Source of the DNA: a virus
Taxonomy: Duplodnaviria; Heunggongvirae; Uroviricota; Caudoviricetes
Length of the DNA: 4,746 nucleotides
Virus record (IMG/VR): IMGVR_UViG_2675903595_000009
Strand: one strand, 5' to 3'
The translations under genes were made by a program, and so were the position numbers. Positions 1 through 4,746 of this stretch are shown here, piece by piece. Positions within the stretch are counted from its first letter, which is position 1. Each line of letters starts with the position of its first letter. The notes beneath the pieces were generated by a model, which was not told where the DNA came from, searched no databases, and worked only from the letters and a program-made list of their open reading frames with translations.

Positions 1-41
1 GCTTTGAACTCTTTAGAGTAACGTTGGGTTTTTCTGCTCAT
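1..41 (-). CDS. IS3-family transposase OrfA, N-terminal 13 codons only (5' partial gene running off the window)
   Basis: ATG at 39..41 (minus strand) with an AAGGAG SD 6 nt upstream; translation MSRKTQRYSKEFK(A). It is absent from the supplied ORF track because it is too short within the window. Confidence 0.4.
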   Translation of the reverse strand, partial: MSRKTQRYSKEFK

Positions 42-105
42 TATTAGCTCCTTCTGATGCCATTCTATTTCAGGAAGGAGTGTCCGTTAAACTCAGGCTA
101 CCTCA
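1..105 (-). mobile_element. Putative left end of an IS3-family insertion sequence (IS600-like), partial; the element continues beyond the window start. The inner boundary is uncertain (somewhere between ~70 and ~105).
   Basis: The minus strand reads 5'-TGAGGTAGCCTGAGTTTAACGGACAC...GAAGGAGCTAATA-ATG-AGC-AGA-AAA-ACC-CAA-CGT-TAC-TCT-AAA-GAG-TTC-AAA-3'. It starts with TGA like IS3-family inverted repeats, and about 66 nt further in a strong SD (AAGGAG, 6-nt spacer) precedes an ATG. The ORF running off the window start encodes MSRKTQRYSKEFK, which matches my memory of IS3-family OrfA N-termini (IS600-like). Only 13 codons are visible. Confidence 0.4.
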
Positions 106-159
106 GGTTATTCGCTTCTGGGCATGGGCGGATCAACAAATGATAGACGGTAATGCAGA

Positions 160-182
160 TTGTAACGCTCGCGGCGTTACAA
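160..182. repeat. Inverted repeat TTGTAACGC-N5-GCGTTACAA (core GTAACGC-N5-GCGTTAC); putative binding site for a dimeric protein, possibly an origin iteron
   Basis: Read directly: 9-bp perfect arms at 160..168 and 174..182 with a 5-bp spacer. The same 7-bp core arms recur at 371..389. Confidence 0.5.
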
Positions 183-370
183 AAAGTGCAATAGATCGCA
201 TCACTTTTATGTCTGGTTTTGCTGATGCGTTAATTCAGGTTGGATGGCTGGTCGAAAATGACGGAGGGCTTTCTCTACCTAACTTTGAACGTCATAACGG
301 AAAAAGCTCTAAAAAAAACGGGCGGTTACAAACGAGCGAGTAACAAAAATACGCGAACTGAAACGAAAAG

Positions 371-389
371 GTAACGCTGCCAGCGTTAC
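371..389. repeat. Second copy of GTAACGC-N5-GCGTTAC (a 19-bp near-perfect palindrome, GTAACGCTG-C-CAGCGTTAC); an extra GCGTTAC half-site lies at 406..412
   Basis: Read directly; identical core arms and spacer length to the 160..182 site. Both lie inside the replication-initiator reading frame, as lambdoid ori iterons lie inside gene O. Confidence 0.5.
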
Positions 390-414
390 ACAAACGGATC
401 AAAAAGCGTTACCA

Positions 415-432
415 GAGGAAGAGGAAGAGGAA
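415..432 (+). repeat. (GAGGAA)x3 hexanucleotide tandem repeat encoding an acidic EEEEEE stretch (frame 1) in the initiator linker
   Basis: Read directly: gaggaagaggaagaggaa. Confidence 0.85.
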
Positions 433-788
433 GATCTAAATACTGATCTCCCCCTCGCCAAAAACGAGCGTCTAAAAAATTCGAGCCGGAGGCTATTGAG
501 CTGCCCGATTGGTTGCCGGAAACACTCTGGCATGAGTGGGTCCGGTTCAGACAGGCATTGCGAAAACCGATTCGAACGGAGCAGGGCGCTAACGGGGCGA
601 TACGGGAACTGGAAAAATTCCGTCAGCAGGGTTTTACACCTGAGCAGGTGATTCGACACAGCATCGCCAATGAATACCAGGGCCTGTTCGCGCCGAAAGG
701 TGTTCGGCCTGAGACGTTGCTCCGACAGGTTAACACCGTCTCGTTGCCGGACAGTGCGATCCCGCCAGGCTTCAGGGGGTAACGGACC

Positions 789-1221
789 ATGAAAAATATT
801 GCGACAGGCGGCGTTCTGGAACGCATCCGCCGACTGACCCCGCCACATGTAACCGCCCCATTCAGAACGGTAGCGGAGTGGCGCGAGTGGCAACTTGCTG
901 AAGGCCAGAAACGTAGCGAGGAGATCAACCGCCTGAATCGCCAGTTGCGGGTGGAAAAAATTCTGAATCGCTCAGGCATCCAGCCGTTGCACCGTAAATG
1001 CTCGTTTGCGAATTACCAGGTGCAGAACGACGGCCAGCGATACGCGTTAAGCCAGGCGAAATCCATCGCCGATGAACTGATGACCGGGTGTACAAATTTT
1101 GCGTTCAGCGGAAAACCTGGTACCGGGAAGAATCACTTAGCGGCAGCTATCGGGAATCGCCTGCTGAAAGACGGTCAGACAGTGATTGTGGTTACCGTGG
1201 CTGATGTTATGAGCGCCCTGC
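789..1221 (+). CDS. DnaC-family helicase loader (phage P-like / IstB-like AAA+ ATPase), 3' end lost in the assembly gap
   Basis: ATG at 789. The translation contains the Walker A motif FSGKPGTGKNHLAAAIG and the segments NRSGIQPLHRKCSFANY and VTVADVMSAL, which align with E. coli DnaC as I recall it (NRSGIRPLHQNCSFENY ... FSGKPGTGKNHLAAAI ... ITVADIMSAM). The ORF-track extension through the N run (to 1781) is an artefact. Confidence 0.9.
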
Positions 1222-1661: not shown

Positions 1662-1677
1662 AGTTTCAGGAGGATTT

Positions 1678-2100
1678 ATGGCGAAACCTTTTACTCCCGA
1701 ACAGCGGGAAGAACTGAAGACGCGAATTGTGGAACTCGTGCATCAGGACGGTCGGGTCACGATTCGGCAGTTGTCAGATGAAACAGGTATCAGTCGTGCG
1801 TCTGTCGGTCGCTTATGCATAGAACTGGTCGCAAGTGGTGATGTATATAATTCTGGCTACGGCTTATTCCCGTCTGAACAGGCTCGCAAGGACTGGCAAA
1901 GCGCCCGCAAAAAACTCTCGAGAGTAAAGGTGAGGAAACCGGTTGTTGTTGATCCGGACCTTATCTGGTCATTACCTGACGGAGAAATACGCCGCTACGA
2001 CAGGCGCCTGAATATAATCTGTCGCGAGTGCCGGAAGAGCGAAGCTATGCAGCGTGTACTGGCTTTCTATCAGGGTAATTTTCAGGAGGCGATACTGTGA
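1678..2100 (+). CDS. Hypothetical protein, 140 aa, with a predicted N-terminal winged-HTH-like region; function unknown
   Basis: ATG at 1678 preceded by a strong SD (AGGAGGA, 1668..1674). The N-terminus (IVELVHQDGRVTIRQLSDETGISRASVGRLCIELVASGDV) has the look of an HTH DNA-binding domain. The reading frame is open back into the gap, so a longer protein starting inside the gap cannot be excluded. Confidence 0.6.
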   Translation: MAKPFTPEQREELKTRIVELVHQDGRVTIRQLSDETGISRASVGRLCIELVASGDVYNSGYGLFPSEQARKDWQSARKKLSRVKVRKPVVVDPDLIWSLPDGEIRRYDRRLNIICRECRKSEAMQRVLAFYQGNFQEAIL

Positions 2101-2157
2101 ATGAAATTAGCTATCAGGCTTCAATTACCGCTGGCATTCGCATCAAAGGAGAGGAGC

Positions 2158-2514
2158 ATGGAAATAAAACCAGAAGATGAGTTAAGCAATATCGTTTTAT
2201 TTCCGGTAAAAGAGGATGACCCTCGTAATCAGGTTAATTTTCTTTATGAGCCATCGGAAAGACCATATTGCCATCACGCCTCTGTACGGGTTGACGAAAA
2301 AGAGCGTCAGGTCCGCTGTAAAATCTGCGGTGCGGTTGTGGAGCCGTTTGACTGGATGCTCTCTGTGGCAAAAAGAGAAACCAGACTGGCAGATGATGTA
2401 AGGCTATTGCGCCAGGAGGAACAGGAAAGGCGGAGAAATATAGAAAAGCTGATACAGATTGAGCGTAACGCGAAAGCGCGGATACGCAGGGCGACAAAAT
2501 CCAGAACTGAATAA
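2158..2514 (+). CDS. Hypothetical zinc-ribbon protein (C-H-H ... C-x2-C) with a basic coiled-coil C-terminus, 118 aa from the preferred start; function unknown
   Basis: ATG at 2158 with SD AGGAG at 2147..2151 (6-nt spacing). The in-frame ATG at 2101 directly abuts the upstream stop (TGA-ATG), giving a 137-aa alternative. Motif YCHHASVRVDEKERQVRCKICG; the C-terminal 40 residues are rich in R, K, E and Q. Confidence 0.55.
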   Translation: MEIKPEDELSNIVLFPVKEDDPRNQVNFLYEPSERPYCHHASVRVDEKERQVRCKICGAVVEPFDWMLSVAKRETRLADDVRLLRQEEQERRRNIEKLIQIERNAKARIRRATKSRTE

Positions 2515-2661
2515 TTAAATTTAGCACTGTTAAAAATTTAATCCTTAACCGGAGGGATTTCTGCACCCTCAAATCATCAGGAGACCACCCGAAAGGGCGG
2601 GGAGCAGTCACACATCTGTTTCCGATAGCCCCGTTCTAATGCTACACTCTTTGATATTTTT

Positions 2662-3348
2662 ATGACCCCAATAAACATATTTATGACAGTTGCTGATTTC
2701 AAACGGCCCAAATTGGAGCTCCCAAACGGGGCAAACAAACTACTACTGCACTCTTGCTGTGCTCCATGTTCCGGTGAGGTGATGGAGGCGCTTCAGGCCT
2801 CGGGAATCGACTACACCATCTTTTTCTACAACCCGAACATTCATCCTCAGAAAGAGTATTTAATTCGTAAGGATGAGAATATTCGCTTTGCTGAACAACA
2901 CGGCGTGCCGTTTATTGATGCTGATTACGACACAGACAACTGGTTTGAACGAGCCAAAGGAATGGAATGGGAGCCCGAACGAGGGATCCGTTGCACCATG
3001 TGTTTTGACATGCGTTTTGAGCGGACAGCGCTGTACGCCGCTGAAAATGGTTTCAGTGTGATCAGCAGTTCACTGGGCATTTCACGCTGGAAAAATATGC
3101 AGCAGGTTAACGACTGTGGGCGGCGAGCCGTCGCGCATTATCCGGGCATGGTGTACTGGGATTATAACTGGCGCAAGCAGGGCGGCTCGTCCCGTATGAT
3201 TGAAATCAGCAAGCGCGAAAAATTCTATCAGCAGGAATATTGTGGCTGTGTGTATTCTCTGCGCGATACCAATCTACACCGCAAATCTCAGGGACGCCCT
3301 CTTATCAAAATTGGTCAACTCCACTACGGTAAAGAAGAGAAGGAGTGA
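2662..3348 (+). CDS. queH: QueH-like epoxyqueuosine reductase (DUF208 family), 228 aa; looks intact
   Basis: Family hallmarks are present: [46 protein letters not shown] and [10 protein letters not shown] (Cys pattern CCxxC ... CxxC ... CxC). Alternative in-frame start at 2683. No obvious SD before either ATG. Confidence 0.8.
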
Positions 3349-3399: not shown

Positions 3400-3454
3400 G
3401 ACTGCGGGTGCTTGAGGCTATCTGCTTCAGGCATGAACACCAAAAGGCAGATAG

Positions 3455-3527
3455 AGAAAAGCCCCAGTTAACATTACGCGTCCGGCAAGACGCTTAACAT
3501 TAATCTGAGGCCAATTTCATGCTTTGC
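3455..3527 (-). ncRNA. sok: Putative Sok-like antisense RNA overlapping the mok SD and start codon; coordinates approximate, 3' end not determined
   Basis: Placed by inference from hok/sok locus architecture plus a minus-strand promoter-like element at 3534..3562. No clear terminator was identified for it. Confidence 0.3.
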
Positions 3528-3731
3528 ACATGTAGGTTAGCCTCTTACATGCCGAAAGGCAAGGAGAAGCAGGCTATGAAGCAGCAAAAGGCGATGTTAA
3601 TCGCCCTGATCGTCATCTGTTTAACCGTCATAGTGACGGCACTGGTAACGAGGAAAGACCTCTGTGAGGTACGAATCCGAACCGGCCAGACGGAGGTCGC
3701 TGTCTTCGTAGACTACGAATCCAGGAAGTAA
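3519..3731 (+). CDS. mok: Mok-like reading frame (in-frame N-terminal extension of hok), 70 aa
   Basis: ATG at 3519 with a GAGG SD about 8 nt upstream. The N-terminus MLCTCR... resembles E. coli MokC (MLNTCR...) from memory; it shares frame and stop with hok. Confidence 0.55.
   Translation: MLCTCRLASYMPKGKEKQAMKQQKAMLIALIVICLTVIVTALVTRKDLCEVRIRTGQTEVAVFVDYESRK
3534..3562 (-). promoter_or_regulatory. Candidate sok promoter on the minus strand (-35 TTGCCT = plus 3557..3562; 17-bp spacer; -10 TAACCT = plus 3534..3539)
   Basis: Hexamers read from the reverse complement; the position inside the mok 5' coding region matches known hok/sok loci. The hexamers are only a moderate match to consensus. 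Confidence 0.25.
3576..3731 (+). CDS. hok: Hok/Gef-family type I toxin (HokD/RelF-like), 51 aa
   Basis: ATG at 3576 with SD AAGGAG (3561..3566). The translation MKQQKAMLIALIVICLTVIVTALVTRKDLCEVRIRTGQTEVAVFVDYESRK has the family's single transmembrane helix and conserved Cys; the first ~44 residues match E. coli HokD as I recall it, and the C-terminal 7 residues differ. Confidence 0.85.
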   Translation: MKQQKAMLIALIVICLTVIVTALVTRKDLCEVRIRTGQTEVAVFVDYESRK

Positions 3732-3980: not shown

Positions 3981-4268
3981 ATGAAAATCGAAGAATTGCG
4001 TGAAATTTTTAGTGAAAATGGCCTCTATGCTGTGCGCGTTGAGAATGGAGCGATTGTCAGCCATTGCCGCATTAGATGTTTGCAATCTCAACAAAGGAAG
4101 AGCGGTGCTGTGTTATTTTATTTTTGTAATGGACTTCTGACGGACGGTTTTATTTTGCGTGAGGACGAATTTGTCACATCATTACGGGTTTTGAAAGAGA
4201 TTGGTTTTAAGGCTGGTTTTCTGCTTTTGCTGAAGAATAAACTCATCTACAATCTTGAGCAGGATTGA
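3981..4268 (+). CDS. Hypothetical protein, 95 aa, no recognised family
   Basis: ATG at 3981 with SD GGAAGGA (3966..3972). A 14-codon upstream ORF (3934..3978) ends 2 nt before this ATG. Confidence 0.45.
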   Translation: MKIEELREIFSENGLYAVRVENGAIVSHCRIRCLQSQQRKSGAVLFYFCNGLLTDGFILREDEFVTSLRVLKEIGFKAGFLLLLKNKLIYNLEQD

Positions 4269-4306: not shown

Positions 4307-4660
4307 ATGGCACATATACAACTGGTCAAACAAACCTCTTCCGGATTACTTCTCCCGGCGACGCCGGAGAGTTGCGATTTTCTGCATCAAATCAAAATAG
4401 GTGAGTGGATACACGCAGACTTTAAGCGTGTGTGTAACTACGCATTCCACAAGCGTTTTTTCAAACTCCTGCAACTGGGTTTCGATTACTGGACTCCGGT
4501 CGGTGGGGCGATCACGCCTCGCGAACGAAAACTGGTGTCCGGTTTCGTTGATTACCTGTGTGAATCAGTAGGCCGGGAACATACGCCAGCTCTGAGCGAA
4601 GCCGCAGAGCAATTGAGGTGTACTGGCAATAGCGGACACTACCATTTGTTCTTTTTTTAA
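4307..4660 (+). CDS. Hypothetical protein, 117 aa from the ATG at 4307 (the ORF track's 4265 start is a TTG overlapping the upstream stop); the C-terminus may be affected by a T7 homopolymer
   Basis: SD GGAGA (4296..4300) 6 nt before the ATG; the ORF ends ...HYHLFFF* inside the T7 run 4652..4658. Confidence 0.5.
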   Translation: MAHIQLVKQTSSGLLLPATPESCDFLHQIKIGEWIHADFKRVCNYAFHKRFFKLLQLGFDYWTPVGGAITPRERKLVSGFVDYLCESVGREHTPALSEAAEQLRCTGNSGHYHLFFF

Positions 4661-4671
4661 GCAGCCATCTG

Positions 4672-4746
4672 ATGATATTTTTCCCTGAAGGCTGCCGGGG
4701 AGATATTCCCCAGACGAGAGTGACGACGCTGACGATTGTAGAAAAT
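4672..4746 (+). CDS. Possible 5' partial ORF (MIFFPEGCRGDIPQTRVTTLTIVEN...) running off the window, or the shifted continuation of the previous gene
   Basis: Frame 1 is open from 4633 to the window end; ATG at 4672; no clear SD. Confidence 0.2.
   Translation, partial: MIFFPEGCRGDIPQTRVTTLTIVEN

Follow-up and report, generated by a model that had tools for sequence, protein, structure and literature searches.

Two small genes lie one behind the other on the same strand of a prophage, just upstream of a queH gene and a hok/sok locus, and the question is whether they act together. The original prediction described them as a tightly linked pair, an HTH-like protein and a zinc-ribbon protein, which might form a regulator pair, an exclusion or defence module, or regulators of queH. 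We asked here what the two proteins are, how the second gene is started and how constantly the two genes are found side by side. Taking the evidence together, we consider it reasonably probable that the two are co-oriented, mutually independent accessory genes from the early region of a Rac/lambda-type prophage and not a two-component system.

The window, by which we mean the whole 4,746-nucleotide stretch that was analysed, is a decayed, replication-defective remnant of a Rac-type prophage bracketed by IS600. Its left end was matched at 100% by megablast to thousands of sites that carry an IS3/IS600 transposase annotation, and the same 106 nt were found again elsewhere in another locus of our set (L019). 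In 2,908 genomes the right end likewise had 100% matches, labelled IS3 family transposase. In locus L001, which is 99.7% identical to the window, PGAP labels the helicase-loader gene as ydaV ATP-binding protein, and an intact 262-aa homologue from this locus is split over the three reading frames of the replication-initiator remnant. The prophage accessory setting that had been predicted is thus correct. Since both genes reside in an IS600-bracketed, replication-defective remnant, any expression of them here would hang on read-through from upstream. The coordinates of all features are collected in the table.

Features of the window and the basis of their assignment (residue numbers refer to the respective protein)
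Feature	Position	Strand	Basis or remark
IS3-family (IS600-like) element end	1..106	.	cuts the prophage short on the left side
Replication-initiator (O/YdaU-like) gene remnant	107..782	+	5' end missing, two frameshifts
ydaV-type (DnaC-like) helicase-loader gene, visible 5' part	789..1221	+	remainder inside masked run 1222-1661
Gene 1 SD, AGGAGG	1668..1673	+	sequence reading
Gene 1, DUF977/YdaW/'LygF'/Ren-like winged-helix protein, 140 aa	1678..2100	+	PF06163, phrog_142, PGAP
Winged helix-turn-helix, gene 1 residues 7-64	1696..1869	+	AF2 model
Allelically variable part, gene 1 residues ~27-50 (helices 2-3)	1756-1827	+	variation clustered there in alignment
C-terminal motif NIICRECRKSEAMQRVLAFY, common to gene 1 and lambda Ren	2011..2070	+	BLASTP and alignment
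Spacer, 57 nt	2101..2157	+	open over 19 codons, frame shared with both genes
Gene 2 leader, last ~28 nt of the spacer	2130-2157	+	counted to the gene 2 cassette; SD AAGGAG 2146-2151
Gene 2, orphan zinc-ribbon/long-helix protein, 118 aa	2158..2514	+	PHROG 1621
N-terminal linear motif E6-x-E-L-x-N-V/I-V-x-F-P16	2173..2205	+	predicted disordered tail, pLDDT 55-59
Zinc ribbon C38-x-H40 ... R50 ... C54-x2-C57, then (E/D)PFD 62-65	2269..2352	+	conservation and AF2
Single long helix, residues 63-117	2344..2508	+	near-invariant LRxEExxRRxNIEKLIQIERNAKARIRR segment
Intergenic region	2515..2661	+	conserved 3' tail of the gene 2 cassette takes up the first ~45-95 nt
Hairpin CCACCC-GAAA-GGGCGG	2585-2600	+	one mismatch in the window
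QueH (epoxyqueuosine reductase) accessory gene (moron)	2662..3348	+	PF02677, 1.9e-65; outside the pair
hok/sok type I toxin-antitoxin locus	3406..3731	+	sok match 3406-3581; hokD 3576-3731
IS3-family element, second, end	4613..4746	.	interrupts a DUF1367/NinB-like ORF

Profile searches assigned gene 1 to DUF977 (PF06163, 1.1e-33, 116.5 bits against a cut-off of 22.1), with residues 1-136 covering profile positions 1-134 of 134, and to phrog_142, annotated as 'Ren-like exclusion protein' (2.7e-44). PGAP labels it 'DUF977 family protein'. The HTH-like N-terminus that had been predicted was borne out by Pfam matches to HTH_24 (7e-6) and HTH_IclR (6e-5) and by the AF2 model, in which helices 7-24, 29-36 and 40-53 are followed by a wing (pLDDT 92-95). 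A Foldseek search of this model against the PDB returned only generic winged helices of the IclR, MarR, GntR and ArsR types, with E values of about 1e-2. The C-terminal motif aligned with residues 73-92 of lambda Ren (BLASTP, 12/20 identities, E 3e-7). Furthermore, the gene order corresponds to lambda O-P-ren, with gene 1 occupying the ren slot behind a DnaC-type loader gene. Judged by its sequence, gene 1 falls into the Ren/DUF977 family of winged-helix proteins, which is known but little understood, and adds one more allele to this abundant family. The original statement that neither protein belongs to a recognisable family is therefore true of gene 2 alone, and gene 1 matches a lambdoid family by profile (DUF977 and PHROG 142) as well as by its ren/nin position. 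What survives of the proposed exclusion function is only a role in exclusion or counter-exclusion for gene 1 alone, as the analogy to lambda Ren would suggest.

The family of gene 2 is widespread and its motifs are sharply conserved, yet it lacks a Pfam entry, a structure and any literature. Gene 2 matched phrog_1621 from end to end (3e-56, residues 1-117 on profile positions 1-120 of 134); this PHROG and the related PHROGs 8538 and 4865 are all annotated as 'unknown function'. We found 148 close homologues, and 1,601 clusters at 50% identity match the profile. All of 40 diverse relatives matched PHROGs 1621 and 8538, and 39 of them also matched 4865. Searches of gene 2 itself gave no family match in Pfam, the PDB or PADLOC. 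Sequence and profile searches against the PDB yielded coiled-coil noise (keratin, GCN4) and S27e at an E value of 0.55 only, and Foldseek searches of the model against the PDB and BFVD returned generic zinc ribbons, none below E 0.4. Pfam searches with the 40 diverse and 10 longer relatives revealed no consistent family, the scattered matches to DivIC, ZapB and YabA being due to the coiled coil.

Three conserved parts can be distinguished in gene 2. In the N-terminal motif, the homologue alignment shows no variation at E6, F15 or P16 and conservation of 90% or more at E8, L9 and N11; the core [DE]NV[IV]xFP is retained even in remote members. The second part is the zinc ribbon. C38, R50, C54 and C57 do not vary among the 40 diverse members, where H40 reaches at least 90% conservation, and the AF2 model places strands at 43-46, 51-54 and 60-61, forming beta hairpins between residues 43 and 61. 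Gene 2 thus has the four conserved predicted zinc ligands and the two beta-hairpin knuckles of a zinc-ribbon fold. The ribbon had been predicted as C-H-H...C-x2-C; the ligands are C38, H40, C54 and C57, and H39 is not conserved. The highly charged, helical C-terminus foreseen in the original prediction is modelled as one uninterrupted helix (pLDDT 82-94). Across the family, conservation reaches 90% or more at L98, E102, N104 and R108 of this helix, which ends in a near-invariant EExNAKxRIR motif. Invariant residues of gene 2 are encoded by two to five synonymous codons, in line with selection at the protein level. Because of this codon variation, a DNA-level constraint behind the invariant C-terminal helix was ruled out.

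How gene 2 is started decides whether the two genes are coupled in translation, as had been proposed. Our reading of the sequence agrees that the 140-aa frame (1678-2100) ends with TGA at 2098-2100, that an ATG follows directly at 2101, and that AAGGAG precedes the in-frame ATG at 2158. The codon at 2101 is not conserved as ATG and reads GTG or GTA in most other DUF977-adjacent loci, and gene 2 homologues of all genera begin at the methionine of 2158, where the PGAP start and the PHROG 1621 profile also lie. The functional start is therefore 2158. Consequently, the gene 1 stop neither abuts nor overlaps it, a gap of 57 nt separates the two genes, and translational coupling has to be given up. 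The last part of this gap, the leader GCTGGCATTCGCATCAAAGGAGAGGAGC, is identical or nearly so in all locus types but one, irrespective of the upstream gene.

The two proteins could nevertheless work as one functional module, such as a specificity subunit that binds DNA together with a zinc-ribbon effector or co-regulator, acting as an exclusion, counter-defence or regulatory pair. Their genes are on one strand, and we found no promoter- or terminator-like site between them. In all 47 loci in which DUF977 adjoins gene 2 the gap is exactly 57 nt and in frame, and 975 complete genomes carry the junction. In rare natural cases four independent stop-loss alleles, each with a different stop-codon substitution, even join both proteins and the linker into a fusion of 278 aa. 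These fusions are, however, single-member clusters compared to thousands of unfused copies, and a single base change suffices to create them, since the 19 codons of the spacer are open by chance (p ~0.4).

The wider neighbourhood speaks against such a module. Directly upstream of gene 2, 92 loci carried DUF977 in 47 cases, an Ead/Ea22-like gene in 32, another gene in 11 and no called gene in 2. Among 5,426 complete E. coli genomes gene 2 was present in 1,679 and DUF977 in at least 3,617, against the 975 with the junction, so that a large share of contexts hold one gene without the other. Only 4 phage records contain both genes, with DUF977 in 25 and gene 2 in 22. Allele matching is absent as well: DUF977 alleles of 54-100% identity stand beside gene 2 copies of 97-100% identity, a uniformity of gene 2 that is partly a sampling effect, since the 80 viral loci were picked as its best matches. 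Contexts of gene 2 without DUF977 include ArgO145, Klebsiella ST15-VIM1phi2.1, Tyrion, pO111_2, Erwinia, Photorhabdus and Pantoea. None of the distant homologues that we examined had a DUF977 neighbour; they come after NinG, RusA, HNH, methyltransferase or primase-like genes. Contigs of further remote relatives were mostly 1-2 kb long and told little about context, and on one contig of a high-GC-type phage the gene lies late in the early region, ahead of portal and terminase. A defence module found no support in PADLOC-DB v2 either, where gene 2 had no match and gene 1 gave only weak matches in its HTH region (best E 0.0017, Csa3 HTH). The genes are thus not neighbours conserved across related and distant genomes, and we regard a two-protein module as unlikely. 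The best reading is that they are common but facultative neighbours that are co-transcribed and not obligately paired, and therefore ordinary phage accessory DNA.

The 32 loci with an Ead/Ea22-like ORF directly 5' of gene 2 raise the possibility that gene 2 is instead tied to these proteins, either as their partner or as a C-terminal module that can be detached, sharing their role in the lysis-lysogeny decision, and that its adjacency to DUF977 is a by-product of recombination. Where checked, this ORF overlaps the gene 2 start by 23 nt, and the same order is found in ArgO145, Tyrion and the phage-plasmid pO111_2. In several proteins of 201-264 aa Ea22 and gene 2 are fused, and the conserved leader of gene 2 codes for an Ea22-like C-terminal tail. 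A role in this decision would fit with Ea22, which is reported to favour lysogeny (PMC7093339). The window itself, on the other hand, has no Ea22-like gene, and the remote homologues follow the other kinds of genes listed above. Ead/Ea22 genes are also highly mosaic, so their adjacency to gene 2 may mark only a shared recombination hotspot. We therefore remain doubtful about a dedicated link between gene 2 and Ead/Ea22.

Regulation of the downstream queH or hok genes by the pair was suggested by the gene order in the window and by the winged helix of gene 1. This proposal is already largely refuted, and we consider it very improbable. Only 14 of the 92 loci have QueH behind gene 2, which leaves regulation of queH unsupported; elsewhere other genes fill its slot, and a cassette boundary lies ahead of queH. 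The PGAP start of queH corresponds to 2683. The region between gene 2 and queH (2512-2665) had no Rfam match, and its fold was no better than that of shuffled sequences (z = -0.54). The hok/sok locus is recognised by Rfam (RF01794, 117 bits) and labelled hokD by PGAP; its distance from the pair is variable, and hok is absent from many loci.

We thus return to two independent early genes as the preferred explanation and infer the roles of both proteins from analogy and architecture only. Gene 1 would be a factor of the ren slot that takes part in early replication by binding DNA or a partner protein. By analogy to Ren, it may protect the replication of its own phage from abortion by Rex-like or toxin-type abortive-infection systems, and its variable recognition helices would set the specificity. 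Gene 2 can be understood as a self-contained mobile cassette with its own leader of ~28 nt and SD, which would insert behind genes as varied as DUF977, Ead/Ea22-like genes, NinG, RusA and HNH. Cassettes were located in the nin region of the pR early operon, where accessory genes lie downstream of the replication genes, in the exo-xis region of the pL early operon and in P1-like phage-plasmids. The long, basic helix of the protein is probably self-associating, and the conserved N-terminal peptide might serve for docking. Most likely gene 2 encodes an oligomeric adaptor whose EExNAKxRIR helix and [DE]NV[IV]xFP peptide would bind a target. Candidates for this target are a nucleic acid or a DNA-transaction protein that is universally conserved, and by binding it gene 2 might modulate early development or host takeover.

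For the locus itself little changes, as the pair represents a frequent, non-obligatory neighbourhood in a mosaic lambdoid early region. The range of the gene 2 family is broad, and its roughly 1,600 clusters at 50% identity extend from enterobacterial to high-GC-type phages. As a long shot, gene 2 might stand for a large, unnamed family of effectors that phages use early; its conserved N-terminal peptide and the invariant EExNAKxRIR helix would then dock on a universally conserved host machine, for instance the replisome, RNA polymerase or a defence sensor. The recurrent placement of gene 2 behind Ren- and Ea22-like proteins, and its occasional fusion to them, could in that case mark a counter-defence or developmental-switch toolkit built of modules, with specificity supplied by the N-terminal partners. 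The family is a reasonable candidate for screens of early and host-takeover genes of phages.

Comparison with known systems places the two proteins at different distances from characterised relatives. The gene 2 model resembles zinc ribbons of the TFIIB and S27e type in its two zinc knuckles on beta hairpins, and its best Foldseek match was the N-terminal ribbon of TFIIB (1pft, E 0.42, 35 columns). However, the first knuckle is C-x-H in gene 2 and C-x2-C in TFIIB, and TFIIB ribbons lack the 55-residue helix that comes after the ribbon of gene 2. The match to PF08271 (Zn_Ribbon_TF) was weak (21.5 bits, below the gathering score of 29 bits), and any match to this family was found in only 8 of the 40 relatives.

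Gene 1 is closer to lambda Ren. Both proteins match PHROG 142 (1.6e-41 for Ren), and they have an N-terminal winged helix and a C-terminal ECRxSxAMxRVLAxY in common. Both genes follow directly 3' of a helicase-loader gene, ren behind P in lambda and DUF977 behind ydaV in L001 and its relatives, where the ydaV stop lies 14 nt upstream of the gene 1 ATG. They differ in length, Ren having 96 aa and gene 1 140 aa with a conserved insertion of ~45 residues (residues ~63-110), their pairwise identity is only ~25%, and Ren falls short of the Pfam DUF977 model whereas gene 1 is well above the cut-off. To our knowledge, the Rex-escape phenotype is that of lambda Ren and has never been demonstrated for any DUF977 protein, and we know of no established biochemical function of Ren itself. 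Neither do we know of an established function of the DUF977 family, the sole functional lead being ydaW as a blocker of the retron-Sen2 toxin. Our literature search for PF06163, phrog_142, phrog_1621 and the RefSeq protein ids found no paper naming them, and matches to 'LygF' were fish or bird lysozymes or Salmonella genome notes. YdaW/'LygF' of the K-12 Rac prophage shares with gene 1 the full-length DUF977 match and the position after ydaV; Rac/LygF proteins of phage records are ~73-77% identical to gene 1 in amino acid sequence, and gene 1 carries another allele of the helix 2-3 recognition region. Lambda ren is expressed on the pR transcript and described as 'likely involved in DNA replication', and Rex proteins interact with O and Ren in a two-hybrid assay (bioRxiv 10.1101/2021.04.19.439022). 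K-12 ydaW was recovered, upon overexpression, as a blocker of the RcaT toxin of retron-Sen2 (bioRxiv 10.1101/2020.06.22.160242). Combined with the two-hybrid data on Rex and with the retron-blocker result, the explicit tie between DUF977/YdaW and lambda Ren leads to a testable counter-abortive-infection hypothesis.

Both open reading frames, gene 1 and gene 2, were borne out by reading the sequence, as were the TGA at 2098-2100 abutting an ATG at 2101 and the ATG at 2158 with its good Shine-Dalgarno sequence AAGGAG (2146-2151). The proposed translational coupling of the two genes did not hold. The equivalent methionine starts every gene 2 homologue, in Escherichia, Kluyvera, Klebsiella, Erwinia, Serratia, Yersinia and others, the PHROG profile sets in at the Met at 2158, the NCBI annotation pipeline (PGAP) calls the same start, and most other loci with the same upstream gene have GTG or GTA in place of the ATG at 2101. 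This comparative evidence puts the gene 2 start at 2158, which leaves a 57-nt spacer after gene 1 and no translational coupling. Nothing resembling a promoter or terminator was found between gene 1 and gene 2, hence co-transcription is the natural reading.

A conserved two-gene pair, as the original prediction would require, is not what the gene neighbourhoods reveal. The ORF immediately upstream of gene 2 was DUF977 (the gene 1 family) in 47 of 92 loci, Ead/Ea22-like in 32 and another gene in 11 (NinG, RusA, HNH, methyltransferase-like, primase-like and others); two loci had no callable ORF there, one being a contig edge and one a 233-nt contig. Of 5,426 complete E. coli genomes, 1,679 carry gene 2 DNA and at least 3,617 carry DUF977 of the gene 1 type (5,014 places); the junction of both occurs in 975. 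Phage records contain DUF977 in 25 cases, gene 2 in 22 and both in only 4. DUF977 alleles with 54-100% identity were found beside gene 2 copies that are 97-100% identical, the latter figure being inflated by picking the loci for gene 2 similarity. The best-supported reading is that gene 1 and gene 2 are independent early accessory genes that happen to adjoin in one frequent layout of a strongly mosaic region. A role of the pair as queH regulators also lost ground, since QueH is the ORF downstream of gene 2 in only 14 of the 92 loci, and the suggestion of a recognisable defence system found no backing in PADLOC, where gene 2 had no match.

We nevertheless keep a functional link of gene 1 with gene 2 open. 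Where DUF977 and gene 2 adjoin, the spacing is always exactly 57 nt in the same frame, and 278-aa fusions exist on different DUF977 alleles, the stop codon having been replaced in four different ways (by W, G, R and R). In these proteins (P0377, P0378, P0380 and P0381) a codon for W, G or R stands where the window has TGA at 2098-2100, and DUF977, a 19-codon spacer and gene 2 are read in frame, giving four independent fusion events. Several Ea22-gene 2 fusions of 201-264 aa (P0002, P0242, P0383-P0388) were also observed. However, each fusion requires just one base change, and the fusions are single-member clusters, compared to unfused clusters of 610 and 3,282 members. We regard them as weak "Rosetta stone" evidence, hinting that gene 2 may tolerate, and perhaps use, an N-terminal partner domain.

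In the Stx-type phage ArgO145 gene 2 is located in the leftward (pL) early operon, in the exo-xis region behind an Ea22-like gene. It lies between NinG (upstream) and YlcG/Q (downstream) in a Klebsiella phage, is preceded by Ead/Ea22 in Enterobacter phage Tyrion and is also found in the P1-like phage-plasmid pO111_2. Regardless of the upstream gene, about 28 nt before the ATG (GCTGGCATTCGCATCAAAGGAGAGGAGC) and the first 45-95 nt past the stop are conserved, and gene 2 therefore acts as a cassette that brings its own ribosome-binding site. Upstream Ea22-like genes often traverse this leader with their last codons and reach 23 nt into gene 2 (e.g. in the loci L077 and L096). The Ea22-like/gene 2 link is tighter than that between DUF977 and gene 2. 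The conserved leader is also the coding end of the Ea22-like C-terminus.

Gene 2 matches PHROG 1621 (3e-56); its matches to PHROGs 8538 and 4865 are weaker, and all three families are of "unknown function". No Pfam model scored above threshold (TFIIB zinc ribbon, 21.5 vs 29 bits), PDB searches found no solved relative, and fold searches with the gene 2 model returned generic zinc ribbons and nothing further. A word-seeded search yielded 148 homologues, every named one in Enterobacterales. The exhaustive profile search yielded 1,601 clusters at 50% identity, 254 of them at E ≤ 1e-10, with high-GC sequences among them, one located on a phage-like contig just upstream of a portal gene. The architecture is constant across diverse relatives. 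Conservation and the AF2 model (pLDDT 76) upheld the predicted zinc ribbon and helical C-terminus, the ligands being C38, H40, C54 and C57 and not C-H-H as first read. The model has a disordered N-terminus, small hairpins at residues 43-61 and a single helix at 63-117 (pLDDT up to 94). Invariant residues are encoded by 2-5 different codons among seven genera, thus constraint acts on the protein. Gene 2 is best regarded as an orphan zinc-ribbon/long-helix cassette of moderate novelty as a family. Judged from architecture and breadth only, the most plausible role is that of an oligomeric adaptor, which would bind a conserved nucleic-acid or DNA-transaction target.

The 999 bases around 1678-2514 match a Rac-type lambdoid prophage of two E. 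coli chromosomes at 99.7% identity. In the annotation of that prophage, cI-like and Cro-like genes come first, then YdaT, an O-like initiator and ydaV (DnaC-type loader), followed by "DUF977 family protein", "hypothetical protein", QueH, hokD and a hypothetical gene, and then DUF1367, DUF1364, DUF1133, tRNAs and lysis genes. This order places gene 1 and gene 2 within the rightward (pR) early operon, directly after the replication genes. The prophage in the window is a remnant. In the O/YdaU-like gene an IS took the place of the 5' end, and two frameshifts, one near the A-run at ~318-325 and one near ~455-470, are present compared to the intact 262-aa homologue of L001, a 99.7% identical locus; the prophage is therefore replication-defective. 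Gene 1, gene 2, queH, hok/sok and orf95 are intact despite this loss, and the DUF1367 ORF is interrupted by the right-hand IS. The ~4.5-kb prophage segment between both IS ends is IS-bracketed. Positions 1222-1661 are a masked run of N (440 nt), and the equivalent flanking anchors are 312 nt apart in seven near-identical loci (L001, L019, L020, L025, L028, L034, L051); either the mask does not preserve length, or the 3' part of ydaV has a 128-nt insertion beneath it.

Downstream of gene 2, a hairpin reads CCGCCC-GAAA-GGGCGG in most loci, with one mismatch (CCACCC) in the window, and is not a canonical terminator because no T-run follows. Many other loci have a Shine-Dalgarno sequence (CCGGAGGT) past gene 2 and then a 70-72 aa ORF (MLNTQK...AMSYHND). 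The window keeps the SD-like sequence (2550-2565), and the ORF is supplanted by the queH accessory-gene (moron) junction. Many related loci have the 95-aa ORF conserved behind hok.

Features of the window and of the gene 2 protein
Feature	Position	Strand	Remark
IS3-family/IS600-like ends	1-106 and 4613-4746		100% identity to thousands of copies
O/YdaU-like replication initiator pseudogene	107-782	+	compared with intact 262-aa protein of L001
Gene 1	1678-2100	+	140 aa
Allelic region of gene 1	residues ~27-50, window 1756-1827	+	A5 alignment (gene 1 homologues)
Gene 2	2158-2514	+	118 aa
Gene 2 N-terminus	acidic tail with [DE]-N-V-[IV]-x-F-P		conserved across relatives
Gene 2 zinc ribbon	C38-x-H40, R50, C54-x2-C57, then (D/E)PFD		conserved across relatives
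Gene 2 long helix	L98, E102, N104, K106, R108; consensus EExNAKxRIR		conserved across relatives
GC-rich hairpin, GAAA loop	2585-2600		downstream of gene 2
QueH (epoxyqueuosine reductase) accessory gene	2662-3348	+	minority of related prophages only
hokD/sok type I toxin-antitoxin locus	3406-3731	+	Rfam sok, 117 bits
95-aa ORF	3981-4268		PHROG 340 (unknown function), 6e-20; no Pfam family

Gene 1, previously taken for an uncharacterised protein, is a member of a known family, and its novelty is low. Pfam DUF977 covers it end to end (116.5 bits vs a gathering score of 22.1), and PHROG 142, "Ren-like exclusion protein", matches at 2.7e-44. In phage records the protein is named LygF or Ren-like, and it corresponds to the YdaW protein of Rac. 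The HTH-like N-terminus was confirmed by AF2, which models residues 1-82 as a winged helix with one extra helix (pLDDT above 90); the C-terminal half is unconfident. Foldseek with this model found nothing beyond generic IclR/MarR/GntR/ArsR winged helices. Among the DUF977 homologues the scaffold is almost invariant, and winged-helix helices 2-3 occur as several discrete alleles (for example SRASVGRLCIEL, TRYLMSVLAREL, SRYYISTLAREL and SKTTIRRLSDSL), which suggests differing DNA or partner specificities. The allele pattern recalls immunity-type specificity swapping.

A preprint (bioRxiv 10.1101/2021.04.19.439022) calls the ren gene "likely involved in DNA replication" and reports that Rex proteins interact with O and Ren in two-hybrid analysis. 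In an overexpression screen, K-12 ydaW emerged as blocking the retron-Sen2 toxin RcaT (bioRxiv 10.1101/2020.06.22.160242). Gene 1 is the Ren-slot winged-helix protein and, by analogy only, would probably act as a replication-associated factor against abortive infection. Ren is named after the escape of lambda from Rex exclusion, which the PHROG name reflects. PHROG 142 also takes in lambda Ren (1.6e-41), which has the C-terminal motif ECRxSxAMxRVLAxY in common with gene 1 (12/20 identities, E 3e-7). In phage lambda, ren and the nin region, the accessory genes past the replication genes, occupy the position equivalent to that of gene 1 and gene 2.
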